Shown here: positions 1 through 40,400 of the stretch, one piece after another
Numbering within the stretch: position 1 is the stretch's first letter
Layout of the letters: each line of letters begins with the position of its first letter
Assembly (NCBI GenBank): GCA_050253335.1
Contig: JBFWJG010000017.1
Location: 1 to 40,621 of the forward strand
Direction: 5' to 3'
DNA length: 40,621 bases
Source: Deferribacterales bacterium
GTDB lineage: Bacteria; Chrysiogenota; Deferribacteres; Deferribacterales; Geovibrionaceae
Program-made: the position numbers and the translations under genes
Notes under the pieces: generated by a model
What the model was told of the DNA's origin: nothing
The model's input: only the letters and a program-made list of their open reading frames with translations
Databases searched by the model: none

Positions 1-361
1 CAGGAGCAGGCTTAGGTTTCTCCGGTTCCTTTTTTTCAACCGGCAGAACCGCAGGTTTTTCCTCCGGTTCCTCATAGGGAAGCGGAGCGGGAATTTTATT
101 CTCCTCCGGCACGGCGCCAGGCGCTCTTTCCGAAACTTCCACGCTTCCGTTTTCACTGAGTCTGTAAGTAAGCTCGCCAGCTTCAGAAGGGTCTGTCATC
201 TCCTCCGGTTTTTCCGCAGGTTTCTGAGCGGTTGTTACTTTGGACGGTTCAGACACCTTCTCTGCCACATATACAAAGAAATACGCCGCAAATCCGAAAA
301 GCAGGAAGAACAGAAAAACCGACTGAATCTTCCTGCCGAAATTGTCCCTGTTGTCCGACAA
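1..361 (-). CDS. Partial (5' part) single-pass membrane protein with a Pro/Glu/Lys-rich linker, probably a SPOR-domain/FtsN-like cell division protein
   Basis: Hand translation from TTG at 361 gives MSDNRDNFGRKIQSVFLFFLLFGFAAYFFVYVAEKVSEPSK...EKPAVLPVEKKEPEKPKPAP, open to the window edge. It has one TM helix and a low-complexity linker, and lies directly after argS, a common position for SPOR proteins. The SPOR domain itself is outside the window. Confidence 0.6.
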   Translation of the reverse strand, partial: MSDNRDNFGRKIQSVFLFFLLFGFAAYFFVYVAEKVSEPSKVTTAQKPAEKPEEMTDPSEAGELTYRLSENGSVEVSERAPGAVPEENKIPAPLPYEEPEEKPAVLPVEKKEPEKPKPAP

Positions 362-7654: not shown

Positions 7655-8873
7655 AAGGAAAAAACCGGCACGGACGCCGAGAAAACGCAGACCAGCAGGG
7701 GCGGCTAAAACCGCCTCTTCAAAACAGCTATACATACTGGGCGGCATCCTTGCCGCCGTTTTAGTGCTTCTTCTGGGAATTTTTCTGGGCATGAAAGCCG
7801 CAGGAAAAGCCGGAACCGCAGACAAAAAAGAGGTTAAAACGCCCCTCTCCTCCGTTCAGGAAGAAGTTGTCACGAAAGACAATAAATCCGCCACGACCGA
7901 AGAGGCAGACAAGGCGATCAAGCTTGCTATGTTCAATCTCGGCATAGACAGCGAAGCCATAAAGTCACGCAAAATGGATGACGGCAGCATCCCCGTTATA
8001 ACATATGTAATCAGCCTGCCGGAGGACAAAAAGGAAGAGCTCACCGGAGAGCTCCAGCCTATGCTTGAGGATATGGGGTTTAAAACCACCCTCAGCGACA
8101 ATCTCAGCGCCTCAAACGAAAACGGCAGCATCATCCTGATCTTCCCTGCCGAAAAAACGGAAAAGCCCAAGGATAAAGAGAAGCCCGTGGTTCTCCCTCC
8201 TAACGCTCCTAAAATGGCGGTCATCATTGACGACTGCGGCTACAGCATTCCCCTCGCGAAAAGGCTCGCCGCTATTAAATATCCGGTAACTTTCGCCATA
8301 CTACCCTACCTGCCCCACGATTCCGAAACTGCTGAAATAGCGAGAAAAGCGGGGAAAACAGTTTTCCTGCATTTCCCTATGGAGCCCCTTTCATACCCCG
8401 ACACAGATCCGGGCAAGGGCGCCGCCCTGCTTAATATGCCTCCCAGCATAATAGAGGCTCAGGCAGACAACAACGTTAAGCAGATAGGCTGGATTGACGG
8501 ATTCAACAACCACATGGGATCCGCCTTCACGGAAAGCGAAACCAAGATGGAGCAGGTCTTGGGCTTCATGAAAAAACACACTGACACATTCATAGACAGC
8601 TACACCACTGGCAAGTCCGCCGCCTATGACGTATGTCTTAAACAGGGTATGCTCTGCGGTCAGAACAGAAAATTCATTGACAACGAAAACAACGAAACAT
8701 ATATCAGAAAAAAAATCATGGAAGGCGTTGAACTGGCCAAAAAGAACGGCAGCCTGATCATGATCGGCCACCTGAAAGATGAAACAGTGAGCACCCTTGA
8801 AAAACATCTGGCAGATGTGGAAAAAGCCGGAGTGCGCATTGTCTCCGTCAAGGAACTGGTACACAGAAAATAA
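7647..8873 (+). CDS. Divergent polysaccharide deacetylase family protein (YibQ-like)
   Basis: N-terminal TM anchor; AVIIDDCG, LHFPMEP, GFNNHMGS, FIDS, IGH motifs. Typical position after envC-ctpA. Confidence 0.9.
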   Translation: MAERKKPARTPRKRRPAGAAKTASSKQLYILGGILAAVLVLLLGIFLGMKAAGKAGTADKKEVKTPLSSVQEEVVTKDNKSATTEEADKAIKLAMFNLGIDSEAIKSRKMDDGSIPVITYVISLPEDKKEELTGELQPMLEDMGFKTTLSDNLSASNENGSIILIFPAEKTEKPKDKEKPVVLPPNAPKMAVIIDDCGYSIPLAKRLAAIKYPVTFAILPYLPHDSETAEIARKAGKTVFLHFPMEPLSYPDTDPGKGAALLNMPPSIIEAQADNNVKQIGWIDGFNNHMGSAFTESETKMEQVLGFMKKHTDTFIDSYTTGKSAAYDVCLKQGMLCGQNRKFIDNENNETYIRKKIMEGVELAKKNGSLIMIGHLKDETVSTLEKHLADVEKAGVRIVSVKELVHRK

Positions 8874-8892
8874 TTTTTAAAAGGAACCCTTT

Positions 8893-9876
8893 TTGCTTTT
8901 TTTAGGTATAGAGACTTCTTGCGATGAAACCTCAATGGCGGTGTACGACACCGCCCGCGGGATTCTTGCGACCCACACAGCCTCCCAGGCGGATATCCAC
9001 AACCTCTTCGGCGGGGTGGTTCCGGAAGTTGCCTCCAGAAACCACATCCTGAAGCTCGAACCGCTTTACATAAAATGTATGGCGGATGCAGCTGTCACGC
9101 CCGCTGATCTTGATGTTATCGGCGTTACCAACGCCCCGGGGCTTATCGGCGCGCTTTTTGTGGGTGTGGGATTTGCGAAGGGGCTGGGCTACGGGCTCAG
9201 GATCCCAGTAATGCCCGTGAACCACCTCTCGGCGCATATCCTTGCCGCAGAGCTTGAGCACAGGGAGCTTAAACCCCCTTACCTCGCTTTAATCATCAGC
9301 GGCGGTCACACGCATATCTACGATGTGGACGCGGCGCTGAACTTCCGCCTCGTGGCAAAAACAGTGGATGATGCTGCGGGTGAAAGTTTTGATAAAGTGG
9401 CAAAAATGCTTAACCTCGGCTATCCGGGCGGACCCGCCATCGAAAAACTGGCGAAATCCGGCAGAGGGGACGCTGTTCCTCTTCCGATCGCAATGAAAAA
9501 AGATGACAATTTCAGTTTCTCCGGCCTGAAAACCGCCGTGCTGAACAGCCTCAACAAAGGCATATACACAGGAGAAGACCTCGCCGCCTCATTCCAGAAG
9601 ACAGCGGCGGATACACTTGTTCTTAAAACCATGCGCATAGCCCGCAGGCTGAAAAGAGAGAATGTCGTCGTTTCCGGCGGCGTCGCCTGCAACGGCTACA
9701 TAAGGGAAGCCTTCAGAAACTCCTGCAAAAAGGGGGAAAATGTGTACTTCCCCTCGTTCCGCCTCTGCACCGACAACGGCGATATGATAGCCTACGCCGC
9801 CAGCAGATTTTACAACAGGCGCAGATTTTTCTCTCTGGAAGGAACAGCTTATGACACTCAGCCCGAAATCGGATAA
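8893..9876 (+). CDS. tsaD: tRNA N6-adenosine threonylcarbamoyltransferase TsaD
   Basis: LGIETSCDET, GGVVPEVASR.H, NHLSAH, SGGHT, DDAAGESFDK, FSFSGLKT, CTDNG.MIA. Confidence 0.97.
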   Translation: MLFLGIETSCDETSMAVYDTARGILATHTASQADIHNLFGGVVPEVASRNHILKLEPLYIKCMADAAVTPADLDVIGVTNAPGLIGALFVGVGFAKGLGYGLRIPVMPVNHLSAHILAAELEHRELKPPYLALIISGGHTHIYDVDAALNFRLVAKTVDDAAGESFDKVAKMLNLGYPGGPAIEKLAKSGRGDAVPLPIAMKKDDNFSFSGLKTAVLNSLNKGIYTGEDLAASFQKTAADTLVLKTMRIARRLKRENVVVSGGVACNGYIREAFRNSCKKGENVYFPSFRLCTDNGDMIAYAASRFYNRRRFFSLEGTAYDTQPEIG

Positions 9877-10837
9877 CATAATCACAAAAACCCTGAGCAA
9901 AAACATCTTTGTCGCCGCCCCCATGGCAGGAGTAAGCACCCCGCCCTTCCGACTCGCAGTGCGTGACTTCTTTGACGGAATAATCTTCTCCGAGATGGTC
10001 TCCGTGGAGGGGCTGATCAGGGGCGGCAAAAAAACCCTTGAGTACATTCACCTCACAGAAAGGGACAACCCTTACGCCATTCAGCTTTTCGGCTCCAGAG
10101 CGGAATCCTTTTCAGATGCCCTGAAAGTATGCGATGAACACTCCGAGGCCGACTTTTACGACATAAACATGGGATGTCCGGTGAAAAAAGTTCTGAAAAG
10201 CGGCAGCGGCGCGGCACTTCTCAAAGATACGGCTAAAATCAGGGAAATAATAAAAGCCGCCAGAAAAGCAACGGGAAAGCCCCTCACAATCAAGATCCGT
10301 CTGGGATGGGACAGAAACAGCATAAATTACCCCGAAGTGCTGGAGATCGCCGCGGGGGAAGGCATCGATGCTGTAAGTCTCCATGGGCGCACCAAAAACG
10401 AAATGTTTTCAGGCGATGTGGATTACGCCCTGATAGCCGATGCGGTAAGAAGAAGCCCTATTCCCTTAATAGGCAACGGAAACGTGGTCTGCACGGAGTC
10501 CTGCCGCCGTATGCTCGAAACAGGTGCGGCGGGGGTGATGATCGGCAGAGGCATGATGAAAGCGCCGTGGATTTTCAAAGCCCTCGCAGAAGGCAGAAAC
10601 CCGGAGGGCTACCTCACTCCGCAGGAAATACACTCGCTCATTTACAGAATGATCAAGTATGAAGCCCTGTACAGGGAAGAAAAATACTACATGGACGCAG
10701 TGAAAAAATATGCTGTCTGGTTCACCAAAGGTCTGCCCGAATCCACTGCTTTCCGTACAGAAATCTACACTGTGAAAACTATGGATGAGACCGTGGAACT
10801 CATTGACAGATATTTTGAAAACCTCCCTTCTGCCTGA
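9851..10837 (+). CDS. dusB: tRNA-dihydrouridine synthase (DusB-like)
   Basis: APMAG, SEMVS, IQLFG, DINMGCP, GSGAALL, KIRLGW, LHGRT, IGNGNV, MIGRG. Confidence 0.9.
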   Translation: MTLSPKSDNIITKTLSKNIFVAAPMAGVSTPPFRLAVRDFFDGIIFSEMVSVEGLIRGGKKTLEYIHLTERDNPYAIQLFGSRAESFSDALKVCDEHSEADFYDINMGCPVKKVLKSGSGAALLKDTAKIREIIKAARKATGKPLTIKIRLGWDRNSINYPEVLEIAAGEGIDAVSLHGRTKNEMFSGDVDYALIADAVRRSPIPLIGNGNVVCTESCRRMLETGAAGVMIGRGMMKAPWIFKALAEGRNPEGYLTPQEIHSLIYRMIKYEALYREEKYYMDAVKKYAVWFTKGLPESTAFRTEIYTVKTMDETVELIDRYFENLPSA

Positions 10838-10898
10838 CAGTTTCAAATATAAGCAGATAATCTTTACAGTTTAATCTGACATTTTTTAACATTTTGGC

Positions 10899-10971
10899 TT
10901 GATAATCACCTCAAAAAGCATATATGATTAGACAGAAACTAACTTTGTTAACACTATTCTTAATAAAGTTA
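10899..10971 (+). promoter_or_regulatory. Putative sigma70 promoter and palindromic operator of the fez-like operon
   Basis: TTGATA (10899-10904), 18 nt, TATGAT (10923-10928). This is followed by the inverted repeat TAACTTTGTTAA-N8-TTAATAAAGTTA (10940-10971, 11/12 match), which ends 3 nt before the GTG start. Confidence 0.45.
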
Positions 10972-10974
10972 TAG

Positions 10975-13194
10975 GTGGCTAAATTGATAGTAATCAAGCA
11001 CTCTCTCAAAGGGCGTATCCGCCTGAAATATAAAAACCTGATCGGCTCCCCTTCCCTAGCTTCCGCTGTGGAGGAAGGACTCCGCAGTATTAAAGGTGTG
11101 AGCGGAGCGAGATGCAGCCACATAGGGGGCAGCATAGTGATAAACTATGACTGCACCGTTGTTCTGCCGTCCGAGCTGATTAAGGCAGTGACAGAAGTGA
11201 AGTCCGCCCCTCGCAGAGCGGCAAAAGAGCCCGCCTGCAAAAGGCAGGGCTGCGTATGCGTAAGGAATGAGGAGCCCAAGGCAGACACAACTGCAACGGA
11301 GTTCGGCATACTTTCCGCCGTTCTCGGCGGCGTTTTCATACGCACAAAAATATTAAGACTGGCTGTCGGCCAGTCCCTGTTCAGCCCGCTTGGGCTAATA
11401 GCGGCCGCTTTCTCTGTTCCGCTCATAGCACGGGCTGTTAAGGACTTCGGCAAAACAGGCAAAGTTTCCCTGAACAGCTTTCTCGGAGCCGGTGTGGCAT
11501 CCGCCGCAATAGCGGGCGAGGCGCTCACTGCCCTTGAAATACTCTGGGTAAACACGGGAAGCGACCTGCTGAACGGCTACGTCACTGAAAAATCCCGCAA
11601 GGCGATAAAAAATATACTGGATGTCACATCCAAGACAGCCTTCGTTTACAGAGACGGGCAGGAGCTTGAAGTCCCCGTGGAGCAGATCCGCACCGGCGAC
11701 ACAGTGGTCATCCACACGGGAGAGAAAATCTCCGTTGACGGTCTCATAACCTGCGGTGAGGCTGCAATAAACGAGGCCTCCATAAACGGCCGCAGCGAGC
11801 TTGTGCACCGCTTCGAGGGTGAACAGGTATTCGCCGGAACCTATGTGCAGAACGGGCTGATATATGTTCAGGCAAGCCATGTGGGTGATGCCACATATCT
11901 TTCAAGGATACTCTGCCTTGTGGAGGACTCCCTCGGAAACAAGGCTCCCATAGAGCTTGAGGCGGACAGACTGGCCAGAAGGCTTGTGAACACAGGCTTC
12001 TGGATGACACTGGGAACCTTCCTCATCACCCGCAATTTTTACAGGGCATTTTCCGTACTGCTGGTGATGACATGCCCCTGCGCAACAGTTCTCGCCGCAT
12101 CCTCCGCCGTAAGCGCGGCAATTTCTAACGCCGCGTCCAGGGGCATACTTATCAAAGGGGGCAGATACCTTGAGGAAGCAGGTTCGCAGGAATCATTCTG
12201 CTTCGACAAAACAGGCACAATCACCACTGATGAACCGAAGGTTATCTCCATCATCCCCGTTAAAGGAAAAACCGAGTACGATGTAATATATTCAGCATAT
12301 ACGGCAGAGCTCCACAACAGGCACCCCGTCGCCGTGGCCATACGCGACAAGGCGCGGGAGATGTGCAGCACGGAAAGCACCCACGCCGTGTGCGAAACCA
12401 TCCTCGGAATGGGCGTGCGGGCGGAATCCATGGGCAGGGAGATCTTCATCGGCAACGCCAAGCTGATGAACAAGTACGGCATAAATATCTCCAAGCTCAC
12501 CAAAGCGAGGGATGAGGCGGAAAAGCTCGGTTTAAGCGTCATATATGTGGCGGAAGACGGAAAAGCCATCGGTATTCTCACTGTGGAAAACAGGCAGAAG
12601 GATAATGTTGAGGCTGTTATAAAAGGGCTCCGTGAGGAAGGGGTGAAGGAGTTCATCCTTGTTACCGGAGATGAAAAATACTCCGCTCAGGCTATGGCGG
12701 ACAGGCTGGGCTTCAACAAATGCCACTACTCCGTTCTGCCCGAACAGAAGGCGGACATAGTGGCTGAGATTCAGCAGTACCATAAGGTTACCATGATAGG
12801 CGACGGCATAAACGATGTGCTGGCGCTTGCCAAGGCGGATCTGGGCATAGCCATGGGTGCGGCGGGGTCTGACGTTGCTGTGGAAGCGGCGGACATAGCC
12901 CTTGTGGACGATGACCTTGAAAAAATACTTTACCTGAGGAAACTCAGCAGAAAGACAAAGGAAGTAATACACCAGAACTTCATGCTCGCGACAGGCTCAA
13001 ATGTGGCGGGCGCGTTTCTCGGCGCGGCGGGTCTTCTGCCGCCGGTTATGGCAGGTCTCCTGCACATAGCCCACACTGCGGGTGTTCTGGCAAACTCTTC
13101 CAGACTTTTAAAATATGAAATGCAGCCTCTCGACGTTCTAGAGACGGAAGCGGTTGAATTAACGGAGGATGGGGAAAAATGCTCGAAGATTTAA
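10975..13194 (+). CDS. Heavy-metal P1B-type ATPase, second ATPase of the ferrosome-like cluster (FezH-like)
   Basis: N-terminal HMA-like domain (HSLKGRIRLK), intramembrane CPC (VMTCPCA), FDKTGT, HP, TGD, MIGDGIND, C-terminal HxxH TM motif. The actuator TGE reads INGRSE. Confidence 0.9.
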   Translation: MAKLIVIKHSLKGRIRLKYKNLIGSPSLASAVEEGLRSIKGVSGARCSHIGGSIVINYDCTVVLPSELIKAVTEVKSAPRRAAKEPACKRQGCVCVRNEEPKADTTATEFGILSAVLGGVFIRTKILRLAVGQSLFSPLGLIAAAFSVPLIARAVKDFGKTGKVSLNSFLGAGVASAAIAGEALTALEILWVNTGSDLLNGYVTEKSRKAIKNILDVTSKTAFVYRDGQELEVPVEQIRTGDTVVIHTGEKISVDGLITCGEAAINEASINGRSELVHRFEGEQVFAGTYVQNGLIYVQASHVGDATYLSRILCLVEDSLGNKAPIELEADRLARRLVNTGFWMTLGTFLITRNFYRAFSVLLVMTCPCATVLAASSAVSAAISNAASRGILIKGGRYLEEAGSQESFCFDKTGTITTDEPKVISIIPVKGKTEYDVIYSAYTAELHNRHPVAVAIRDKAREMCSTESTHAVCETILGMGVRAESMGREIFIGNAKLMNKYGINISKLTKARDEAEKLGLSVIYVAEDGKAIGILTVENRQKDNVEAVIKGLREEGVKEFILVTGDEKYSAQAMADRLGFNKCHYSVLPEQKADIVAEIQQYHKVTMIGDGINDVLALAKADLGIAMGAAGSDVAVEAADIALVDDDLEKILYLRKLSRKTKEVIHQNFMLATGSNVAGAFLGAAGLLPPVMAGLLHIAHTAGVLANSSRLLKYEMQPLDVLETEAVELTEDGEKCSKI

Positions 13195-13484
13195 TCGCGG
13201 CGAAAAAATACGTCACGGTGGTTCACCATGTGGAAGGAAGGATAAGGCTCAAGGTTGACCCCTCCGTGGTGAAGGACCCCGTAAGCAAGAAACTTGAACA
13301 GATAAGCAGCAGCCTCCCCGGTGTGCTCGACACAAGGGTGAACATAATGGCGCGCTCAGTGGTTATACGCTACGACCCGAACATAATAGACCCGAAAACA
13401 TTTGAAAACCTGATAACAACAAAAGATACAGAAATTTGCAGAGAGATACTCAAACGTTACGAGGACACTTACATGCAAAGTTAA
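13179..13484 (+). CDS. Small HMA-like (HMA2) domain protein, FezC-like
   Basis: VVHHVEGRIRLK...LPGVLDTRVNIMARSVVIRYDP. Same Cys-less HxxxGRxR signature as the N-termini of both ATPases. RBS GGAGG upstream; overlaps the ATPase stop. Confidence 0.8.
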   Translation: MLEDLIAAKKYVTVVHHVEGRIRLKVDPSVVKDPVSKKLEQISSSLPGVLDTRVNIMARSVVIRYDPNIIDPKTFENLITTKDTEICREILKRYEDTYMQS

Positions 13485-13495
13485 GGAGGCAGTAA

Positions 13496-14179
13496 ATGGG
13501 AAAAAAAGCCGCTGATGCGGAAAATCCCGTAAAGGAAGAAAGCTGCACCGATAAGCCGCAGAAAGATTCTGCATCGGGAAAAGAAAAAACAACGGAAAAC
13601 CCTCCTCAGAATGCCTTCAGAGCATCGGAGAAACCGGAAAGCGCAGAAGAAGCGCACGCCGGAAACCAAACGGAAATACCCCACGGATACGCACCAAACG
13701 GAGAAGAGTTCACAGGTATGCCTGAATACGGATTTCAGCAGCCGCCCTACGGCCATATGCCGCCGCCTCCCCCTCCTTACGGATACGGCTATATGCCGCC
13801 TCAGCCGCCTTACGGGTATATGCCTCAGATGCCGTACGGATATATGCCGCCACCCCCGCCGCCATACGGTTACATGCCGCCTCAGCCGCCTTACGGCTAT
13901 ATGCCGCAAATGCCTCATGGGGCACACCACACAGAGCACCACGGGGAAGACCCCTTCGGCATGCTCTTCGGCAAATTCGGGGAGATGATCAAGGAAAACC
14001 CCAATCTTTCCGCAGTGGGAAAAATTGCGGATGCGTCAGGAAGCGACTTTATCAAGGGAATGCTGATCGGGGCGGGCGTTGCCATGCTCTTTTCCAACGA
14101 TTCCATAAAGGATTCACTGATGAGTATTTTCTCTAAAACACTCGGCGGCATGACAGACGATGCCGAAGAGACCGAATAA
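13496..14179 (+). CDS. Membrane protein with Pro/Tyr/Met-rich repeats and a C-terminal GxxxG helix (YtxH-like, ferrosome accessory)
   Basis: RBS AAGGAGG. Acidic disordered N-terminus, PYGYMP repeats, HGAHHTEHHG, then SDFIKGMLIGAGVAMLFSN. Confidence 0.8.
   Translation: MGKKAADAENPVKEESCTDKPQKDSASGKEKTTENPPQNAFRASEKPESAEEAHAGNQTEIPHGYAPNGEEFTGMPEYGFQQPPYGHMPPPPPPYGYGYMPPQPPYGYMPQMPYGYMPPPPPPYGYMPPQPPYGYMPQMPHGAHHTEHHGEDPFGMLFGKFGEMIKENPNLSAVGKIADASGSDFIKGMLIGAGVAMLFSNDSIKDSLMSIFSKTLGGMTDDAEETE
13742..13921 (+). repeat. Coding low-complexity repeat: six PYG(Y/H)MP-type units arranged as two ~27-29 aa blocks
   Basis: PYGHMPPPPPPYGYGYMPPQPPYGYMPQM followed by PYGYMPPPPPPYGYMPPQPPYGYMPQM. The copies use different synonymous codons. 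Confidence 0.9.
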
Positions 14180-14191
14180 GGAGGATTTTTT

Positions 14192-14596
14192 ATGCACCAT
14201 CTGGCAAAAGCGGCCGCGGGAGCCTCTCTCATAGGGGCGGCGGCAGGCGCTGTAGTGGGCGGAGCAGTTTCCGCAGCAAAACAGGCGCAGGATGTTAAGG
14301 AAGGAAAAATCACCAAGGAAGAAGCGGCCAAAAGAACCGCAAAAGACGCGGCAGGCGCAGGAGCGGCGACAGCAGTGGGCGTTGCGGCTGTGAGCCTTCT
14401 CAGGCTCGGCGGCGTTTTCGGCATACTCACGGTTTTTGCCGTTGCCGCAGGCACAAAATACCTTCTGGACACCGAAGGCAAAAAGACCTGTAAAAAAGTG
14501 AAAGCAGCAGCAGGCAAAGCCGCCGGAAAAGTAAGCGAAGCGGCAGCCTCCGTCAGTGAAAAGCTTAAAGACGAAGAACCCTTGAAATCAGAATAA
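14192..14596 (+). CDS. MamC-like Gly/Ala-rich membrane protein (ferrosome accessory, FezD-like)
   Basis: GAVVGGAVSAAKQAQDVKEGKITKEEAAKRTAKDAAGAGAATA...VAAGTKYLLD follows the MamC/Mms13 pattern as I recall it (GALVGGAAALAKN...ITNTEAA...GAGLATA...AAKYAWD). RBS AAGGAGG. Confidence 0.78.
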   Translation: MHHLAKAAAGASLIGAAAGAVVGGAVSAAKQAQDVKEGKITKEEAAKRTAKDAAGAGAATAVGVAAVSLLRLGGVFGILTVFAVAAGTKYLLDTEGKKTCKKVKAAAGKAAGKVSEAAASVSEKLKDEEPLKSE

Positions 14597-14617
14597 TATA
14601 TAAAAAAGGAGATTGAC

Positions 14618-14932
14618 ATGAGCGATCAGAAACAGAATCCCCAGAACCCTCAGGCACCCCACTACGGATATTACCCCTACCCCTACCCTCCCCAGCAGCA
14701 GTATGCGGATCCTTCCGTTTACCCCCATCTTAAACAGTGGTTCAACTTCCGTGAACCCAGCTATGTAAAAGGCTTCGCAGTGGGTGCGGGCATTGCCCTT
14801 CTGCTCACCAACCCCACAGTTAAAAAAGCCATAGTCAAAGGCGTTGTTAAGGTTTGGGGCGGACTTCAGTCCGGCGTTGAAGAGCTGAAAGAGCAGATCA
14901 GGGATGTTCAGGCGGAAGTCGAAGGAGAATAA
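14618..14932 (+). CDS. Small GxxxG membrane protein with a Gln/Pro/Tyr-rich N-terminus and C-terminal coiled coil (YtxH-like/FezA-like)
   Basis: QNPQNPQAPHYGYYPYPYPPQQQY; SYVKGFAVGAGIALLLTNPTVKK; GVEELKEQIRDVQAE. RBS AAGGAG. Confidence 0.8.
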   Translation: MSDQKQNPQNPQAPHYGYYPYPYPPQQQYADPSVYPHLKQWFNFREPSYVKGFAVGAGIALLLTNPTVKKAIVKGVVKVWGGLQSGVEELKEQIRDVQAEVEGE

Positions 14933-14934
14933 GC

Positions 14935-15156
14935 GTGAGCGGCGAAAAGAAGGCGGCGAAGAAGAAAAATCCGTCCGCCGTAATGCGAAAACGCAGGCTG
15001 GTCAAAAACGCCATGATACTCACCATGGCGGCGACTGTTGTCTCAGGGTTCGGTAAAGGCAAGGCGGCAAAGCATGTGCACATAGCCGCCGGATGCGCCC
15101 TTGTGGGTTTAAGTATTTACCACAACTACCTTTACCCTGAAAATATGAAAAGTTAG
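14935..15156 (+). CDS. Small two-TM membrane protein with paired histidines
   Basis: GTG start after GGAGA. Basic N-terminus, hydrophobic helix, then KHVHIAAGCALVGLSIYH. Fills the gap within the operon. Confidence 0.7.
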   Translation: MSGEKKAAKKKNPSAVMRKRRLVKNAMILTMAATVVSGFGKGKAAKHVHIAAGCALVGLSIYHNYLYPENMKS

Positions 15157-15179
15157 AAGGTGCTGTCATTTTAGGCTCA

Positions 15180-17279
15180 ATGTTTTTCACCGGACTTGAA
15201 AAGGTCGGAATAGTGCATGACATGCCGGGGCGAATCCGTCTCAAGGCTCCCGTTCTGGGCAATCCCGCTCTGGATGCAACCCTTGTGGAATCCGGTCTGG
15301 AGCAGATTAAGGGCGTGAAATCCGTCCGTGTGAACCAGAAGGCCAAAACGGCAGTGGTCAACTTTGACAAAAATACAGATGTACGGGGCGATGTTCTGGA
15401 TGTTCTCTCAGCGTTCAGCCATACGGTTTTCAACGCGGAGGAGGAACTCCAGAACTCTCCGGATTTAATCAATGTCTACTGGGCGGGAACAATGTGGATT
15501 CTCAAGCTGTTCCTGCCGCAGGGGCTTAGGCGCCCGCTTACTTATCTCGGCGCCGCACCTATCCTCATGGAGGGTATAGAAACTCTGTTCACCAGAGGAC
15601 TCAAGGTCGAAGTGCTGGACGCGGCGGTTATCTCCATGCTGCTTGCCAGAAAGGACTACTTCACCGCAGGCTCCATAACCTTCCTGCTTAATCTGGGACA
15701 TTATCTTGAGGAATCCGCCGAGTACAGATCCGACAAAATGCTGAAAAGCCTTATCAAGCCCGAAGTGGAATACGTCTGGGTTGTCAGGGGGCAGTCGGAA
15801 GAAAAAACGGCGGTCACCGATCTCCAGATTGGCGATATGGTGCGCGCGGGCTCAGGGGAGATGATACCTGTGGACGGCAAAGTCGCCTCCGGAGAGGGGC
15901 TTGTGAATCAGGCCTCGGTGACAGGCGAAAGTCTGCCTGTTCACATCAAGCCGGGTGACTACGTATATTCCGGCACAGTGATGGCCGAAGGAAAAATCAT
16001 CATCGAAGCCGAAAAGGTCGGCTCCGAAACAACAACTGCCCGCATAGCCAAATTCATAAGCAATTCTCTGAAAAACAAATCCAGAACGGAAGTGAAAGCC
16101 TTCGCCGCGGCTGACAAAATGGTTCCAGTGACCTTTGCCGCAGGGCTTGCGACCCTGCTTCTCACAAGGGATTTCAGGCGTGCGTCCTCTGTTCTTTCCG
16201 TGGACTATTCATGCGCGCTCCAGCTTGTCACGCCGACAGCGATCAAGGCCAGCATGTTCAACGCCGCAACAGAAGGCATATTCATCAAGGGCGCTCAGGC
16301 CCTTGAAAACCTTGCGGAAATAGACACTATCATCTTTGACAAAACAGGAACGCTCACAAAAGGGATGCTCTCCGTAACGGAGGTTCAGCCCTATAACGGA
16401 TATAATGAAAACGAAATAGTCAGAATCGCGGCCTCTGCCGAGGAATACTACTCACACCCCATAGCCTCCGCCGTTGTGAAGGAGGCCGAAAACCGCGGCC
16501 TCAAAACAGAGCAGACAGGCGAGGTGGACTTCATCATAGCCCACGGCGTTTCCGCCTATGTGGGGGGCAAAAACGTCCTTGTGGGGAGCCACCATTTCGT
16601 GGCGGAGGATGAAAAAATCGTCTGCTGTTTCGCTGATGAAGACGCAGGCAGAATGCGCAAAAAGGGGCAGACAATACTTTATGTCGCTATAGACGGGAAG
16701 CTCTGCGGGCTGATTGCGCTCAAAGATACCTTGCGCGATGAATCGGCTCAGGTTATAAAAGAGCTAAAGAAGCACGGCGTTAGAAAGACCGTTATGCTCA
16801 CCGGCGACCACCGTGATTCCGCACTGCATGTGGCGGAACTGCTCGGAATAGACGAAGTTTATTATGAAATGAAGCCCGAAGACAAAGCGGGCATAGTGAA
16901 ACAGCTTAAAAATCAGGGGTGCAGAATCGCCTTCGCAGGAGACGGTGTGAACGACGCACCCGCCCTGCTCACCGCAGATGTGGGCATCAGCCTTCCTCAG
17001 GGGGCGGATCTCGCTAAAGAGACAGCCGCAGTCATACTCCTTAGGGAAGACCTCATGGGAATAGTCAAAGCAAGGGTTCTTGCTGTGAAAACCATGAAGG
17101 TCATAAGGCAGATGTTCCGGTTTAACATAGGCGTGAACACCGCCACCGTTGCTCTCTCGCTCATGGGCAGAATAAGCCCGCTGGCAAGCGCTCTGCTCCA
17201 CAACGGAACCACGCTTTCGACACTGATTTACGCCCTCAGCCTCTCCTCCTACGGCGTAAAAAGAAAAAAGGAGAAGTAG
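15180..17279 (+). CDS. fezB: P1B-6 type ATPase, ferrosome iron transporter FezB-like
   Basis: N-terminal HDMPGRIRLK, intact TGES, SVLSVDYSCAL (P1B-6 DYSC motif), IFDKTGT, HP, GDGVND, LLHNGTT (HNxxT). Confidence 0.88.
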   Translation: MFFTGLEKVGIVHDMPGRIRLKAPVLGNPALDATLVESGLEQIKGVKSVRVNQKAKTAVVNFDKNTDVRGDVLDVLSAFSHTVFNAEEELQNSPDLINVYWAGTMWILKLFLPQGLRRPLTYLGAAPILMEGIETLFTRGLKVEVLDAAVISMLLARKDYFTAGSITFLLNLGHYLEESAEYRSDKMLKSLIKPEVEYVWVVRGQSEEKTAVTDLQIGDMVRAGSGEMIPVDGKVASGEGLVNQASVTGESLPVHIKPGDYVYSGTVMAEGKIIIEAEKVGSETTTARIAKFISNSLKNKSRTEVKAFAAADKMVPVTFAAGLATLLLTRDFRRASSVLSVDYSCALQLVTPTAIKASMFNAATEGIFIKGAQALENLAEIDTIIFDKTGTLTKGMLSVTEVQPYNGYNENEIVRIAASAEEYYSHPIASAVVKEAENRGLKTEQTGEVDFIIAHGVSAYVGGKNVLVGSHHFVAEDEKIVCCFADEDAGRMRKKGQTILYVAIDGKLCGLIALKDTLRDESAQVIKELKKHGVRKTVMLTGDHRDSALHVAELLGIDEVYYEMKPEDKAGIVKQLKNQGCRIAFAGDGVNDAPALLTADVGISLPQGADLAKETAAVILLREDLMGIVKARVLAVKTMKVIRQMFRFNIGVNTATVALSLMGRISPLASALLHNGTTLSTLIYALSLSSYGVKRKKEK

Positions 17280-17999
17280 ATGCTTAACCTTCAACACGCC
17301 GAAAGCGGCCTCTGCTACATAATCAAAGGAACCCCGCAGGGGGAATCCGCCCAGAAGCTCGCTTCTCTTGGGCTTTATAAAGGCAGTGCCGTGACAAAGC
17401 TCGAAACTGATGACATAAAATATCCCACCGTCAAAGTTGACACAAAAAACGGAGTAAGGGTTATAAGCGGTCAGCTCGCAAAGCATATCACTGTCCGTGC
17501 GGGCTCAGGAGAGCCGAAACCATTTTACACTGCCCCCCTTTCATCCACAGTAATCACCCATAATCTCGGCAGGTGCGATAAAAACGCCGCCAGACTCGCC
17601 ATGCTCGGCATAAAGGAAAGAATAAAGCTGAAAATAATAAAATACCTGCCACCTATGGAGTATGTTGTTATGGTTAATCACAAAAACCGTGTGCGCATTT
17701 CAGAGGCTGTCGCCGCAATGATAATAGGCGATACGGAGAACAGGAAGAATTTTCAGTTCACATTCTCACCCAAAGGGGCGGAATTTAAAGTTAAAGGCAT
17801 AGCGGCAGGGAAGAAAATAACCGCCTTCCTCTGCGGTGTCGATATATGCACAGGCTCCGTAATAAGCATGGAAGGAATAGAAAGCGGAAAGCGGGTGGAT
17901 CTTGATGCTGAGCAAGATGTCGTTCTCCACACTCATGAAGGGCTTATAATAACCATGTCCGCAAAAACCGCCTCAATGATCGAAGTCGGCCATCATTAA
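17280..17999 (+). CDS. Tandem FeoA-domain protein
   Basis: Repeated FeoA-like segments (QKLASLGLYKGSAV, RLAMLGIKE, FLCGVDICTGSVI) with RVISGQLAKHITV and MSAKTASMIEV ends. Starts immediately after the fezB stop. Confidence 0.65.
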   Translation: MLNLQHAESGLCYIIKGTPQGESAQKLASLGLYKGSAVTKLETDDIKYPTVKVDTKNGVRVISGQLAKHITVRAGSGEPKPFYTAPLSSTVITHNLGRCDKNAARLAMLGIKERIKLKIIKYLPPMEYVVMVNHKNRVRISEAVAAMIIGDTENRKNFQFTFSPKGAEFKVKGIAAGKKITAFLCGVDICTGSVISMEGIESGKRVDLDAEQDVVLHTHEGLIITMSAKTASMIEVGHH

Positions 18000-18053
18000 A
18001 AACCGCACATCCTGCTCTTGTGTTCGTACTGACAGCGTTTAATCGGCTATTTC

Positions 18054-18148
18054 AAATCCCCCTCAGTCCCCCTTTAAAAAAGGGGGAAGCTATTGCAGAT
18101 AAAGGCAAAAAACACCCTCCTTTCCTAAAAGAGGGCGGGGGAGGATTT
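18054..18148 (+). repeat. Family-A 95-bp MITE/REP-like element, copy 1
   Basis: AAATCCCCC...CCCCCTTT-AA-AAAGGGGG-type hairpin...CCCTCCTTT-N3-AAAAGAGGG hairpin...GGGGAGGATTT; the ends are imperfect inverted repeats. Confidence 0.85.
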
Positions 18149-18214
18149 ATGTAGACATATTTTTTTCAGCTTTTGAAATAAACATGTAGTTGAATCACTC
18201 TATATCTGCCGTTC

Positions 18215-18292: not shown

Positions 18293-18371
18293 GCTGCTCA
18301 TCTGTCATAACAATCCAAAACCGTACATCCTGCCCTTGTGTTCATGTCGGCAGTCTTTGAACAGCTATTTC

Positions 18372-18466
18372 AAATCCCCCTCAGTCCCCCTTTAAAAAAG
18401 GGGGAAGCTATTGCAGATAAAGGCAAAAAACACCCTCCTTTCCTAAAGGAGGGCAGGGGAGGATTT
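18372..18466 (+). repeat. Family-A 95-bp element, copy 2
   Basis: Nearly identical to 18054-18148. Confidence 0.85.
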
Positions 18467-18487
18467 AAAAAGAAGTCCTGTTTCCGC

Positions 18488-22990: not shown

Positions 22991-23145
22991 CAACCCCAAG
23001 GAAGGGGTTGCGCCGTGCGGAGCGAAGCCTTGCTTTGCAAGGCGCGAGCGTGTATTCAAAATTTCCATGGATGGTAAATTTTGAATTATCAGAACAAGAT
23101 GCTGCGCCGTGCGGAGCGAAGTCTTCCTTTGCAAGGCGCGGGCGG
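22991..23145 (+). repeat. Family-C three-hairpin GGA-loop element (22991-23085) plus a degenerate second copy
   Basis: CAACCCC-AAGGAA-GGGGTTG, CGCCGTGCGGAGCGAA, GCCTTGC-TTT-GCAAGGC, GCGAGCGTGTA, TTCAAAATTTCC-ATGGAT-GGTAAATTTTGAA. The core recurs at about 23104-23145. Confidence 0.85.
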
Positions 23146-23153
23146 TTCCTAAC

Positions 23154-23248
23154 AAATCCTTGCCCGCCCTCCTTTATCAAAGGAGGGCATTTTTGCTTTT
23201 AACCGCAACAGCTTCCCCCTTTTTCAAAGGGGGACCGGAGGGGGATTT
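23154..23248 (-). repeat. Family-A 95-bp element, copy 3 (reverse orientation)
   Basis: Reverse complement reads AAATCCCCCTCCGGTCCCCCTTTGAAAAAGGGGGAAGCT...CCCTCCTTTGATAAAGGAGGGCGGGCAAGGATTT. Confidence 0.85.
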
Positions 23249-23277: not shown

Positions 23278-24981
23278 CTAAAACTTCACAACCTTAGGCG
23301 TGTTTTTCGCAAATTGCGGCATTGTCATTCCGGCTTTTGCGTTTATGTATGTCGGGTCAGTGACAGTATAGCGTTTGCCTTCAAATGTCACATAATCGCC
23401 TTTCACGTTTGATTTAAAAGCTACAGCCGCCGCTATGTGCCCCGGATAATCCAGAAACACAGCATCCAGTCCGAGAAGCTGTTTCACCAGATAAGTGAAG
23501 AGTATGCTCCTGTCCTCGCAGTCTGAGTAAGGGTAGTAGATTGTTTCCATGGCAAAGAGGAATTTCTCCCGTCCGAACTGCTGATCATCCGTTGCATATT
23601 TAAACGCTGTCTGAACGAACTTGAGAAGGATATTCACGGCCTCCTCATCACTTTTGCCTTTTATAATGGGCGCAAGCTGAGTAAGAAGCGGCTTGCCTGC
23701 CCAGTCGGGAAGTCCGGCCTCTCCGTAAAGATTCACATCTGTCTGCGGATGATATTTCAGATAAACTATATCGTTCATATTATAAGGAACTTTTATACTG
23801 AAAGACTGCCCGCCGTAGCTGAAGCTGAGCTCTCTCTCGGAAATTTTTCTGCCGAAGTCAGGATAATCCGCCATGCGGAAGTCCATGGCTCTGTCCGCCT
23901 TGGGGTAGCTTTTTTCATAAGTGTACACACTGCCGAGATTTTTAATGAACCCGTCAGCGGAAACAGCGTAGTATCTCTTATCGTTAAGCGTGAAGAATGA
24001 GACTCCGTAAAGCTTTGTGCTTGCGGGAACAAGAAGGTACACATTGCTTTTGTCGTATGCGGTTCTTGTTTCATAGCCTGCTTTGCTGAGGATGAACCAT
24101 GTGAGCAGAACCTTTCCGTTCCTATCCGCCGCTATTTTTCCGGAAGCCTCGCTCACAAGGAGGATGAACCCCCAGTCAGTCATTTTAAGCTCTTTTCTGT
24201 ATTTAAGAAGGTTGTTAACCAAAGGCTCGTAGTCCGAAAGAGCCGCCTTCTCCCAGAATTCACCCAGCTTCTTCCCGTTAAGAGGCTCTTCCGCTCCAAG
24301 CTGAAGTTTGGGGTCATAGCCGACTTTAACAGGACTGCCGAAGAAAACAAATTCCAGCGCTCTCCCTTTTATCACCGGAGGAGCCACTACAACCGGCTCG
24401 GGAACCGGAACAGGCACAGGCTGAGGAATCACCGTAACTTCGGGTAAAGGCTTCAGCTGAGGTTTGGGCTCAGGCTTCACCACAGGTGCGGGAACAGGCT
24501 CAGGCTTGGGTTCAGGCTTAGCCACAGGCGCAGGAGCAGGCTCGGGCTTGGGTTCAGGCTTCACCACAGGCGCGGGAGCAGGCTCGGGCTTGGGCTCAGG
24601 CTTCACCACAGGCGCGGGAGCAGGCTCGGGCTTCACCACTGGCGAGGGGGGCATGGGGGGCAGGGGTTTGACAGGTTCCGGAACGATTATCGGCTTGGGC
24701 TGTACAGGTTTTGCAACAGGAAGCGGAGCTTTTTCCTCACTGGGCGGCGCCACAGGTATTTTTATCGGCTTGGGCTCGTCAATCTGCTTAACCGGTTCCT
24801 CTGTCTCGACGCGGATCCACATCTCTTTCAGAAAGGCGGTAAATTCCTTATCCCTTTCATCCTTAAACTGCTGGAACTCGTCCATCTGTGATTTCATATA
24901 TTCTTCAAATGTTTCAGCATTTATCACTGAGAAAGTGGAAAACACCGTGAGAATTATCAAAGCCGTTCTGCCGAAGCGCAT
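23278..24981 (-). CDS. Exported protein with a Pro-rich repeat linker and a transglutaminase-like C-terminal domain
   Basis: Signal peptide; helical N-terminus; PEPKPEPAPAPVVK repeats; C-terminal YPYSDCEDRS (Cys), YPGHIA (His), TDPTY (Asp). Confidence 0.75.
   Translation of the reverse strand: MRFGRTALIILTVFSTFSVINAETFEEYMKSQMDEFQQFKDERDKEFTAFLKEMWIRVETEEPVKQIDEPKPIKIPVAPPSEEKAPLPVAKPVQPKPIIVPEPVKPLPPMPPSPVVKPEPAPAPVVKPEPKPEPAPAPVVKPEPKPEPAPAPVAKPEPKPEPVPAPVVKPEPKPQLKPLPEVTVIPQPVPVPVPEPVVVAPPVIKGRALEFVFFGSPVKVGYDPKLQLGAEEPLNGKKLGEFWEKAALSDYEPLVNNLLKYRKELKMTDWGFILLVSEASGKIAADRNGKVLLTWFILSKAGYETRTAYDKSNVYLLVPASTKLYGVSFFTLNDKRYYAVSADGFIKNLGSVYTYEKSYPKADRAMDFRMADYPDFGRKISERELSFSYGGQSFSIKVPYNMNDIVYLKYHPQTDVNLYGEAGLPDWAGKPLLTQLAPIIKGKSDEEAVNILLKFVQTAFKYATDDQQFGREKFLFAMETIYYPYSDCEDRSILFTYLVKQLLGLDAVFLDYPGHIAAAVAFKSNVKGDYVTFEGKRYTVTDPTYINAKAGMTMPQFAKNTPKVVKF
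24473..24642 (-). repeat. 42-bp coding tandem repeat (about 3.7 copies, 14 aa unit EPKPEPAPAPVVKP)
   Basis: On the + strand the unit GGCTTCACCACAGGCGCGGGAGCAGGCTCGGGCTTGGGTTCA and variants start at 24473, 24515, 24557 and 24599. Confidence 0.9.
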
Positions 24982-26932: not shown

Positions 26933-27194
26933 TGCCTATTATATAAATGTCCTCATCCGGTGAGCGCATGTTAAGCTCCTTCCTGATAAGAAGCTCAAGA
27001 TATTCCTTGTCCTTTTTTATGGCCTCAAGTTCTTTCTGAAGGCTTCTGATTTTGGAGTCCATCTCCATAATCTGAGCTTCGTAGGTGTTTTTAAGCCCCA
27101 CGAGCTCCCTGTATTTGAGCACGCCGTTATGGCCGAAAAAGAGGTAAAGCACAAGTCCTGCAATAAGTGCAAAGTAAATTAAGCCTGCTTTCAT
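26892..27194 (-). CDS. ftsB: Septum formation initiator (FtsB/DivIC family)
   Basis: Short N-terminal TM, FGHNG, coiled coil, YLELLIRKELNM..PDE. Confidence 0.8.
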   Translation of the reverse strand: MKAGLIYFALIAGLVLYLFFGHNGVLKYRELVGLKNTYEAQIMEMDSKIRSLQKELEAIKKDKEYLELLIRKELNMRSPDEDIYIIGNEKIHSNGDNRSN

Positions 27195-28099
27195 GGTTTT
27201 TTCGCCTTCTGCTCCACAATTCTCGCCGCGGTCTGTCTCAGAGTAGCGGGAACTTCCTTTGATCTTGCAAGCAGTTCCACATCCTGACTCATGAGCCTGC
27301 CCACAAGCCCCATTGTTATGTCAAGGGGGGTTTTGGGATTTTTAGCCATTGCGCTGATGATAGTATAACTTTTCATCCATTCCTTGTTCAAGGCAACTTC
27401 ACGGAAAATATGCTCTGAAGTGCTCTTGTTTTTCACAAGGAATTCAACCTCATCCTCTGTCATTCTGGGATTGCGCATCACAGCAGATGAGATCTGCTTG
27501 TTCGGGCTGCGCACCAGGAGTCCGCGCGCCTGCTTATTCCCTTTGGAGGCAAGCTTTATCTTCTGGGAAGTACTCATTTTCTGAATCTGACCGTAGAGAT
27601 TTTCCTCAAGTTCTTTTTTCGCTTCAGGATCCGGCTGCCAGCCGGAAATATCCCTTACTCTCGCCGCTGTACGGTCGCTGAGAAAAGGGTTTTTCAGAAG
27701 CAGAACCGCCAGTGACGGTTCATCAACCAGAATATCCGCATCCGCCAGATTTTCCAGAATCTCTTCCTCCGCGGACTGGGCAAACGCAGTGAAGATATCC
27801 GCGCGCAGCCCCTTGTTCGCGGAGGCCGCCGCAAAAAACTCCGGCGAGTTTTTCATCATCCGGCAGAGAAAAACAAACAGCTCGCCGCCAAGAGAAGGCT
27901 CACTGCACAAAACCCCGTAGAGATCTGTCCTGTTTCTGAGCCATTCGTAAAGAGGCTTGGCCAGCGTTCTTCTCTTTTCCAGAACGCACTTAACCCACAG
28001 AGGTTCGTCCCCTGCGGGCACTCGGTTTTCCGCAAGAATCTGTGATGCAGTGCCGTCATCCGTTTCCATGTTCAGAAACGAAGAAGTGGAAAGCTCCAT
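27191..28099 (-). CDS. Conserved hypothetical helical-repeat protein
   Basis: Full ORF inside the operon with recurring NP motifs (LLKNP, VMRNP, MAKNPKTP) and QIQKMSTSQKIKLASKGNKQARGLL. ATGA overlap with ftsB. Confidence 0.75.
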   Translation of the reverse strand: MELSTSSFLNMETDDGTASQILAENRVPAGDEPLWVKCVLEKRRTLAKPLYEWLRNRTDLYGVLCSEPSLGGELFVFLCRMMKNSPEFFAAASANKGLRADIFTAFAQSAEEEILENLADADILVDEPSLAVLLLKNPFLSDRTAARVRDISGWQPDPEAKKELEENLYGQIQKMSTSQKIKLASKGNKQARGLLVRSPNKQISSAVMRNPRMTEDEVEFLVKNKSTSEHIFREVALNKEWMKSYTIISAMAKNPKTPLDITMGLVGRLMSQDVELLARSKEVPATLRQTAARIVEQKAKKP

Positions 28100-33775: not shown

Positions 33776-34051
33776 CAAAAATCCCCCGTCCTGCGGGATT
33801 TTTGTACACGCTCGCGGTTTGCAAAGCAAACCTTCGCTACGCACGGCGCATTTCCATCCATGGAAATGTGACGGGACAAATAATGCAATGACCTCTTTAT
33901 CCTGCCCCCAATCCTGCGGGATTTTTGTACACGCTCGTGGTTTGCAAAGCAAACCTTCGCTACGCACGGCGCATTTCCATCCATGGAAATGTGACGGGAC
34001 AAATAATGCAATGACCTCTTTATCCTGCCCTCACGTCCTGCGGGATTTTTG
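33776..34051 (-). repeat. Tandem array (period 123-124 bp, about 2.1 copies) of the family-C three-hairpin element
   Basis: Units start at 33789, 33912 and 34036. The minus strand reads CATTTCC-ATGGAT-GGAAATG, CGCCGTGCGTAGCGAA, GGTTTGC-TTT-GCAAACC, GCGAGCGTGTA, CAAAAATCCCGC-AGGAC-GGGGGATTTTTG. Confidence 0.92.
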
Positions 34052-40320: not shown

Positions 40321-40400
40321 AAATCCCCCTCTATCCCCCTTTAAAAAAGGGGGAAGCTGATAAGAACACCCCTCTTTCATAAAGAGGGGCAGGACAGGAT
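40321..40400 (+). repeat. Family-A element, copy 4 (shorter spacer; its right end runs into a family-C hairpin)
   Basis: AAATCCCCCTCTATCCCCCTTTAAAAAAGGGGGAAGCT...CCCCTCTTT-CAT-AAAGAGGGG-CAGGACAGGAT. Confidence 0.8.

Follow-up and report, generated by a model that had tools for sequence, protein, structure and literature searches.

We analysed a stretch of 40,621 nt (below, the window) of contig JBFWJG010000017.1 (assembly GCA_050253335.1) from a Deferribacterales bacterium of the family Geovibrionaceae. Eight open reading frames (ORFs) at 10975-17999, flanked by dusB and, in convergent orientation, tex, form, as judged from their gene content, an intact fez (ferrosome) cluster of the FezH type. 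Its first gene encodes a FezH-like P1B-ATPase in which the glutamate of the actuator motif TGE is replaced by arginine, and comparison with its homologs indicates that this protein may be a metal-triggered, non-turnover partner (sensor, switch or scaffold) more than a pump. All eight ORFs lie on the plus strand, where neighbours overlap by up to 16 nt or are separated by up to 23 nt; an earlier preliminary description of eight co-oriented, tightly packed genes agrees with this in its span.

The fez cluster and its genes

Gene 7 (15180-17279, plus strand, 699 aa) is, by motifs and tree position, a P1B-6/FezB-type ATPase. FezB is defined by D[Y/F]SCA in M4, HNxxT in M6 and an N-terminal R-rich motif (bioRxiv 10.1101/2020.01.10.902569, a preprint cited throughout from its accessible excerpts). 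Gene 7 carries all three: RxR (GRIRL) at residues 17-21, DYSCA at residues 342-346 (16203-16217) and HNGTT at residues 674-678 (17199-17213), together with TGE at 15921-15929 and DKTGT at 16338-16352. TGE, DKTGT and H-N-x-x-T are invariant in all 119 aligned homologs, taken from the best 120 of 1664 matches. We built a FastTree phylogeny from a fast alignment of 161 ATPases (135 representatives, genes 1 and 7, 14 added homologs and 10 locus ORFs; 15 of the original 150 representatives, being under 560 aa, were dropped). Gene 7 falls into a DYSCA clade of 19 members (support 0.973) and joins there the ATPases of FezB clusters from Cereibacter, Vibrio, Arcobacter and Azospirillum (support 1.0). 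P1B subclasses were labelled by motif in this tree, which holds no characterised FezB; read in that way, the phylogeny of 15180-17279 upholds the initial call of a P1B-6 ATPase with DYSC and HNxxT motifs. P0276, P0285, P0291, P0293, P0299, P0304 and their neighbours make up two further clades, one sister to FezB with D[YF][SVC]CG and one more distant with M4 motifs of the DY[GANH]xG type; both are variants of the P1B-6 site.

Profiles of the small genes 2-6 were built from family relatives and compared with four FezB clusters from a plasmid collection (L119-L122) and with an unrelated metagenome locus (L037). The four plasmid clusters stand as proxies for characterised FezA/C/D/E/F/G sequences, which were outside the comparison, and the Fez names given below to genes 2-6 follow proxies and published description, not reference sequences. 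Homologs of genes 2-5 occur in most of the four plasmid clusters and of gene 6 in one, whereas L037 has homologs of all five, in the same order, behind a FezH-like ATPase. The clusters with small-gene homologs beside FezB are alpha-, gamma- and epsilon-proteobacterial.

Gene 2 (13179-13484, plus strand, 101 aa) encodes a soluble protein with an RxR motif and an HMA_2 domain (PF19991, 34.1 bits against a Pfam cut-off of 30), in keeping with the HMA-like protein first described. Its homologs stand beside FezB in L120, L121 and L122 and occur also in L037 (E 6e-17 to 8e-10), and by description it would be FezD-like. Gene 5 (14618-14932, plus strand, 104 aa) has a P/Y/Q-rich N-terminus, a helical C-terminus and GxxxG; homologs are found directly upstream of FezB in all four plasmid clusters and in L037 (E 2.5e-29 to 2.6e-11), which makes it a FezA-like candidate. 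Gene 3 (13496-14179, plus strand, 227 aa) combines a P/Y/G/M/Q low-complexity region at residues 76-142 (40% Pro, 19% Tyr) with a His patch and a C-terminal GxxxG helix, which it shares with its paralog gene 5 (hhalign probability 96.8%, E 3e-10); its homologs are in L120 and L037. The P/Y/Q-rich tails of genes 3 and 5 keep their composition, not their sequence. Gene 4 (14192-14596, plus strand, 134 aa) is a Gly/Ala-rich protein with two hydrophobic segments and GxxxG motifs, present also in L119, L120, L121 and L037. It matches the NCBIfam MamC model (NF038051) over positions 4-90 of 97 with E 2.8e-11 and 43.6 bits, below the 100-bit cut-off, and is at most a distant MamC relative.

Three GxxxG membrane proteins and a small membrane protein with two histidines had been proposed from the sequence. 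The GxxxG motifs are indeed present in genes 3, 4 and 5, but of the small genes gene 4 alone, and not 3, 5 or 6, shows membrane helices in a simple Kyte-Doolittle scan over 19 residues with a cut-off of 1.5, so that for the latter three the designation of membrane protein leans on motif and homology. Gene 6 (14935-15156, plus strand, 73 aa; a small two-helix protein) has its histidines, His49 and His63, on the second helix, and both are kept in all 10 aligned rows. This H-x13-H spacing presumably resembles that of cytochrome b. Modelled as two copies, gene 6 reached a score of 0.57, the best control 0.00; the runs agreed in 100% of contacts, with pLDDT of at least 81. It is thus predicted to homodimerise; true homo-pairs reach this mark in 20 of 30 cases and single chains in 1 of 23, counts that apply only roughly to gene 6. 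FezC is reported to bind heme b and has been modelled as a homodimer (PMC10979944). The two helices, two invariant histidines and predicted homodimer are shared by gene 6 and the FezC/DUF4405 heme-b cytochromes (PMC10979944), and we regard gene 6 as a candidate heme-b protein resembling the membrane domain of FezC/DUF4405. It differs in having no HMA domain on the same chain and no Pfam DUF4405 match (E 0.05); on the model, it may work like the FezC membrane domain, yet we do not file it as FezC.

Gene 8 (17280-17999, plus strand, 239 aa), first described as a tandem FeoA, does carry FeoA-like repeats. Their number, however, is three in the model (three repeats of secondary structure, pLDDT 89), and Pfam sees one FeoA match (residues 7-73). 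The model aligns with FeoA 3e19 (Z 11.4, root-mean-square deviation 1.8) over 71 residues, and FeoA structures in general align with 70-71 residues spread over 1..239; other SH3-like structures match 43-123 and 124-203. From these ranges the protein probably has a swapped arrangement, with one domain built from both termini. Repeat-to-repeat hhalign comparisons were weak (probability 2-31%), and Foldseek returned no match to gene 8 at E 0.001. Look-alike FeoA protein clusters of 242-249 aa are commonest in Thermodesulfobacteriota.

Because gene 7 is of FezB type and the small genes are homologous to neighbours of FezB elsewhere, we assign the eight genes to a fez cluster. GxxxG proteins (genes 3, 4 and 5) accompany fezB, gene 2 represents the R-rich HMA-like accessory, and gene 1 corresponds to FezH in being the second P1B-ATPase of a larger fez cluster, carrying an R-rich motif and membrane metal sites that are distinct; the label follows the preprint's description and motifs, not the FezH sequences its authors list. 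The preliminary description of a ferrosome-like cluster is borne out by the motifs and tree position of gene 7 and by the matches of the small genes to proteobacterial FezB clusters, and its small proteins do have homologs beside FezB, on the evidence of the four proxies. Its 'expanded' accessory set, by contrast, is no novelty. Larger fez clusters in which a second ATPase (FezH) is accompanied by GxxxG, DUF4405-like and FeoA genes are already listed by Grant and Komeili (bioRxiv 10.1101/2020.01.10.902569). Their FezH clusters share with ours the FezB motifs, a second R-rich P1B-ATPase with distinct membrane metal sites, GxxxG proteins, an R-rich soluble protein, a FeoA-domain gene and a small His membrane protein; the operon here differs in lacking a DUF2202 ferritin-like gene and a fused FezC. 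The tested fez operons, namely those of Shewanella putrefaciens and Rhodopseudomonas palustris (six genes each), fezABC of Desulfovibrio magneticus and the operon of Clostridioides difficile, have one ATPase each; the operon here, known from its genes alone, adds FezH and a FeoA gene. The accessible preprint text gives 0 matches for 'Deferribacter', although its list of 304 genes may still include a Deferribacterota genome. The window thus extends ferrosome gene clusters to a family of environmental anaerobes, with a cluster type that is already catalogued.

The operon is evidently no chance arrangement, since its gene order is kept, its genes are conserved, and independent sequence covers it. 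All eight genes stand in identical order in each of the 10 same-family loci among 14 regions compared; in the other 4, from other families, BLAST matches an ATPase only (34-38% identity). Pairwise ratios of nonsynonymous to synonymous substitution rates (dN/dS) against L023 and L025 are 0.03-0.14 across all eight genes, compared with 0.04-0.05 for tsaD. A 21-kb contig from another public run covers 8800-18025 with one gap. Five short contigs of a further run fall in 12998-15581; this run was guessed to be RNA, may be DNA, and was not used for expression.

The search with gene 7 found a match in 15 of 41 genomes, including 10 of 15 family relatives, and of 68 genomes of the phylum 11 match the profile of gene 1, each of them a member of the host family. 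The closest named homologs are those of Geovibrio thiophilus (93% identity for gene 1, 83% for gene 8) and the named loci belong to Deferribacterales, which makes the host Geovibrio-like. Outside the family, the named best matches of both ATPases are mostly from Desulfobacterota (45-50%), and the gene 7 subclade is sister to Desulfobacterota sequences (support 0.976 in the unrooted FastTree phylogeny). Transfer of the cluster from Desulfobacterota is therefore plausible on these sequences. Within the family, the flanks of the cluster vary from genus to genus. FezB clusters are also carried on plasmids of 130-180 kb in Arcobacter (L121, CP129951.1) and Cereibacter (L119, NZ_CP089968.1), which would offer a route for horizontal spread; the Cereibacter plasmid is typed as conjugative and its FezB cluster is flanked by TonB-receptor genes.

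The actuator site of gene 1

Gene 1 (10975-13194, plus strand, 739 aa) probably starts at TTG 10984, because its closest homologs have 736 aa. It begins with an HMA_2 domain holding RxR (GRIRL, residues 13-17), and its AlphaFold2 model has the P1B fold (pLDDT 86, pTM 0.79). Of the canonical P1B catalytic core, DKTGT (12205-12219), HP, TGD and GDGxND are present and the actuator TGE is absent. Residues 271-273 (11785-11793) read NGR, placed opposite SGE of CopA by a gapless alignment across the motif; Glu275 follows two residues on, and the hinge Asp is replaced by Asn539. CPC lies at residues 367-369 (12073-12081) and the M6 motif HIAHT at 13063-13077. The protein is thus a CPC-type P1B-ATPase as far as its CPC goes, but it is not the ordinary CPC-type pump of the preliminary description, for Arg273 stands in place of the TGE glutamate.

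The replacement extends across the family. Among the 120 best of 686 matches, position 273 is Arg in 93, Met in 13, Glu in 3 and another residue in 11, and DKTGT, CPC, the HP histidine and M6 HxxH[TS] are invariant. Gene 1 belongs to a FezH clade of 35 members (support 1.0), with members named from Desulfobacterota, Candidatus Scalindua and Halochromatium. All 35 retain the phospho-Asp and 30 have Arg in place of the TGE Glu. Taking the 25 unselected representatives of 50% clusters, we found Glu at this position in none and Arg in 23; the two Glu-bearing members of the clade are our own additions from outside this unselected sample. Outside the clade, 120 of 126 ATPases keep the Glu, and five of the six exceptions fall in degenerate modules related to P1B-P2A fusions. 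CPC/HN-type ATPases in the tree keep TGE, and P0256, sister to the FezH clade, retains NGE. The hinge Asp is missing from 35 of 35 clade members (one of them a gap), compared with Asp or Glu in 123 of the 126 others, and in the clade Leu mostly takes the place of the Pro in GDGxNDAP. With a dN/dS of 0.05-0.06, similar to tsaD, gene 1 is by this measure under purifying selection.

The TGE motif has been called 'omnipresent' and responsible for dephosphorylation (PMC10973460; also PMC5428812; these and PMC2268108 are cited from accessible excerpts). In the SERCA mutant E183R, E1P accumulates, the E1P-E2P rate is below 10% of wild type and no E2P is formed from Pi; its authors read the mutant as uncoupled (PMC2268108, abstract 52 of a 2005 meeting). 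We therefore take the change of the TGE Glu to Arg in gene 1 to point to poor turnover and to a role as switch or scaffold. Like the ATP7A/B TGE mutants (PMC5428812), SERCA E183R shares with gene 1 the loss of the actuator Glu and an intact phosphorylation site; these mutants are engineered, however, whereas the change in gene 1 is natural, family-wide and under purifying selection. FezH as a whole could be a widespread natural family of stalled P1B-ATPases, binding metal and ATP, phosphorylated with an incomplete cycle and acting as a metal-dependent switch on assembly, FezB loading or iron release. We advance this wider proposal tentatively, at somewhat less than even chances; were it true, a bacterial organelle would have a pseudo-pump as its regulator. 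This specific claim on FezH, left uncharacterised by its original authors in the accessible excerpts, is the useful outcome of our analysis. The accessible preprint text makes no mention of the TGE-to-TGR change or of a three-repeat FeoA, and our literature search found neither this change in FezH nor a paper on a TGE-less P1B family.

Linkage of FezH to FezB outside the host family is indirect: 13 gene 1 homologs seem to share a genome with a FezB homolog (3 with the same species name). Among 79 loci listed by a metagenome scan for FezH neighbourhoods, a list filled up with generic P1B ATPases, one (L037) is near FezH; the plasmid collection gave no FezH-level match (best about 35% identity). 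In a single record, P0018 (1044 aa), a FezH of TGE type (from residue 146) is fused with part of a FezB. The record consists of truncated pieces of both, is possibly an artefact of assembly or gene calling, and was not used as evidence of partnership. Six homologs of 1600-1700 aa, considered as FezH-FezB fusions, turned out to be P1B-P2A fusions outside the FezH clade. In these (P0262, P0264, P0287, P0290, P0303 and P0312) an HMA_2-headed degenerate P1B-like module with its own DKTGT, an eroded CPC and TGE lost in 3 of 6 is joined to a complete P2A-type ATPase, and the modules form their own branch. Fusions were seen only among the homologs listed; no search was aimed at longer ones, and fused FezH-FezB forms are possible.

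The nucleotide-binding domains of both ATPases contain conserved patches: H447, H470 and C473 are invariant within residues 447-473 of gene 1 (alignment A1, 89 rows), and H455, H472, D477 and E478 within residues 455-482 of gene 7 (alignment A4, 90 rows). The His/Cys patches may be regulatory metal sites.

Proposed mechanism and alternatives

We read the eight genes as a FezH-type ferrosome operon in which FezB is the pump and gene 1 a metal-triggered switch or scaffold, and consider this full reading slightly better than an even bet. In a first step, extrapolated from other species, GxxxG proteins 3, 4 and 5 would cluster the ATPases and shape a vesicle from the cytoplasmic membrane; more speculatively, the P/Y/Q-rich tails might aid self-assembly. 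FezB, whose catalytic set is complete, would then act as the pump that loads the vesicle with Fe(II), iron phosphate forming inside. These two steps appear to us quite probable. Third, the gene 6 dimer, as a small heme-b protein, would together with the soluble gene 2 replace FezC, in which an HMA domain and two helices are combined, and genes 2 and 8 would be soluble accessories. In the fourth step gene 1 would bind ATP, and metal at its CPC/HxxH site, could be phosphorylated and would turn over poorly, serving as a metal-triggered switch or scaffold of the ferrosome, not as a second working pump. Provided the first two steps hold, we think this role fairly probable; the sequence behind it is observed, the mechanism inferred. 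That the host forms the organelle is likewise suggested by other species, in three of which fez genes are necessary, the S. putrefaciens operon being sufficient in E. coli (bioRxiv 10.1101/2020.01.10.902569).

Several points weigh against this reading. The literature search found no FezH-type cluster studied by microscopy, proteomics or genetics, and our fez assignment was made through motifs and proxy clusters, not through characterised FezA-H sequences. Related operons of an ATPase with small scaffolds (CtpC/PacL) make efflux platforms, not organelles (PMC13460109). Upstream of the operon the best Fur-like box has 4 mismatches, equalled by 73% of shuffles, and no significant box was found in the window, in its three congeners (0 of 4 genomes of genus g1) or in G008; two ferritin-family genes lie elsewhere in the genome. 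At gene 1, the evidence from SERCA E183R is a meeting abstract on an ATPase of another subfamily than P1B. Moreover, in 114 of the 117 non-Glu homologs (among the best 120 of 686) an acid, Glu or Asp, follows at the second residue after this position; the three TGE-bearing homologs form a single nested clade (support 1.0), all without this +2 acid. The latter suggests one reversion event, hence a site that still matters, and the +2 acid pattern fits a compensated, still-active actuator site.

These last observations are the strength of the best surviving alternative, a ferrosome operon with two working pumps, in which the acid of TGRxE replaces the TGE Glu and FezH still cycles, moving a second metal through its CPC and HxxH site or iron in another direction. 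The retention of all P-domain and N-domain catalytic motifs in gene 1 agrees with it as well. The +2 acid is not universal in FezH, however: that generalisation had to be rejected, as the acid occurs in only 25 of 35 members of the wider tree clade, where Arg at the TGE position is more frequent (30 of 35). Changes also affect the hinge Asp and the GDGxNDAP Pro, and Arg at the TGE position blocks E1P-E2P in SERCA (PMC2268108). We hold a two-pump operon to be unlikely, though it deserves the most attention among the alternatives. A conserved P-type ATPase that lacks the 'omnipresent' TGE Glu would be a pseudo-pump regulator or else a pump whose dephosphorylation chemistry is new, and either outcome should be of interest to transport enzymologists. 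A 2026 review counts ferrosome shaping, mobilisation of stored iron and storage of other metals among the open questions (PMC13463818).

A second alternative does away with the storage organelle: the operon would encode a plasma-membrane platform for metal efflux or uptake, similar to the CtpC/PacL 'effluxosome', with GxxxG proteins stabilising and clustering the two ATPases. Mycobacterial CtpC is a P1B-6-like zinc exporter with CPC, dependent on single-helix PacL scaffolds (PMC13460109), and the combination of R-rich P1B-ATPases with small scaffolds, as well as the CPC of gene 1, is common to both systems; the missing clear Fur box and the ferritin-family genes elsewhere also suit such a platform. 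Yet gene 7 has the FezB-specific DYSCA in place of CPC and groups apart from CPC/HN-type ATPases, while gene 1 has H-I-x-H-T and no TGE Glu where CtpC has N-x18-H-N-x-[S/T] (PMC13460109). No DUF1490 match was found in the Pfam search, and all four species reported with a tested FezB operon make granules (bioRxiv 10.1101/2020.01.10.902569; PMC13463818, accessible excerpts). A platform seems improbable to us. Least probable is a ferrosome-like compartment which, transferred into a new promoter context, would lack iron regulation here or store another metal: the flanks differ among genera, a Fur-like box is confined to genus g3 and the metal site of gene 1 is distinct, but the FezB motifs are unchanged, a FeoA-repeat gene lies inside the operon, and the Fur test is weak, the genome's own feoAB promoter site scoring 2 mismatches with the same consensus (4% of shuffles as good).

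Regulatory sites and other features of the window

A sigma-70-like promoter (TTGATA-N18-TATGAT, 10 of 12 matches) is predicted at 10899..10928 on the plus strand, in a region with 10 promoter-like sites compared with 5.9 +/- 2.5 in shuffles. A similar sequence is present in all four genomes of genus g1, and a weak TTGA-N8-TCAA element overlaps the predicted promoter. At the gene 1 start codon there is also an FNR-like palindrome, which was dropped because it is part of the coding sequence and imperfect in 2 of 4 genomes. Upstream of the operon, 6 of 11 genomes, all of genus g3, have a Fur-like 15-mer with 0-2 mismatches, a quality equalled by at most 1% of shuffles; this result is partly circular, as the Fur consensus was picked after the sequences had been viewed. 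Scanned genome-wide, this consensus gave 131 matches at up to 2 mismatches and did not discriminate. In genus g3 (L026, L029, L034-L036), and also in L027, a leader of about 70 nt with a possible long hairpin (GTTGACACATTAAC...GTTAGTGTGTTAA) is conserved between promoter and gene 1; this leader is absent from the window's genus. Iron genes of the host genome include two feoAB operons and four Fur-family genes above cut-off; the two feoAB operons are divergent (G000:C9:39714-45035) and have a common 283-bp intergenic region with a Fur-like site.

Elsewhere in the window, two minus-strand ORFs, at 23278-24981 (567 aa) and 27191-28099 (302 aa), have no Pfam match at E 0.001. Following the operon are two copies (18045-18152 and 18364-18467, 98% identical) of a palindrome-rich element of about 105 bp. 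BLAST matches it 59 times across the genome, often as tandem arrays; other copies within the window lie at 23154-23248 and 40321-40358. The element is probably a family similar to repetitive extragenic palindromic (REP) sequences or to miniature inverted-repeat transposable elements (MITEs). A second dispersed family of short repeats is present at 22991-23150 and 33800-33990 and on other contigs too.

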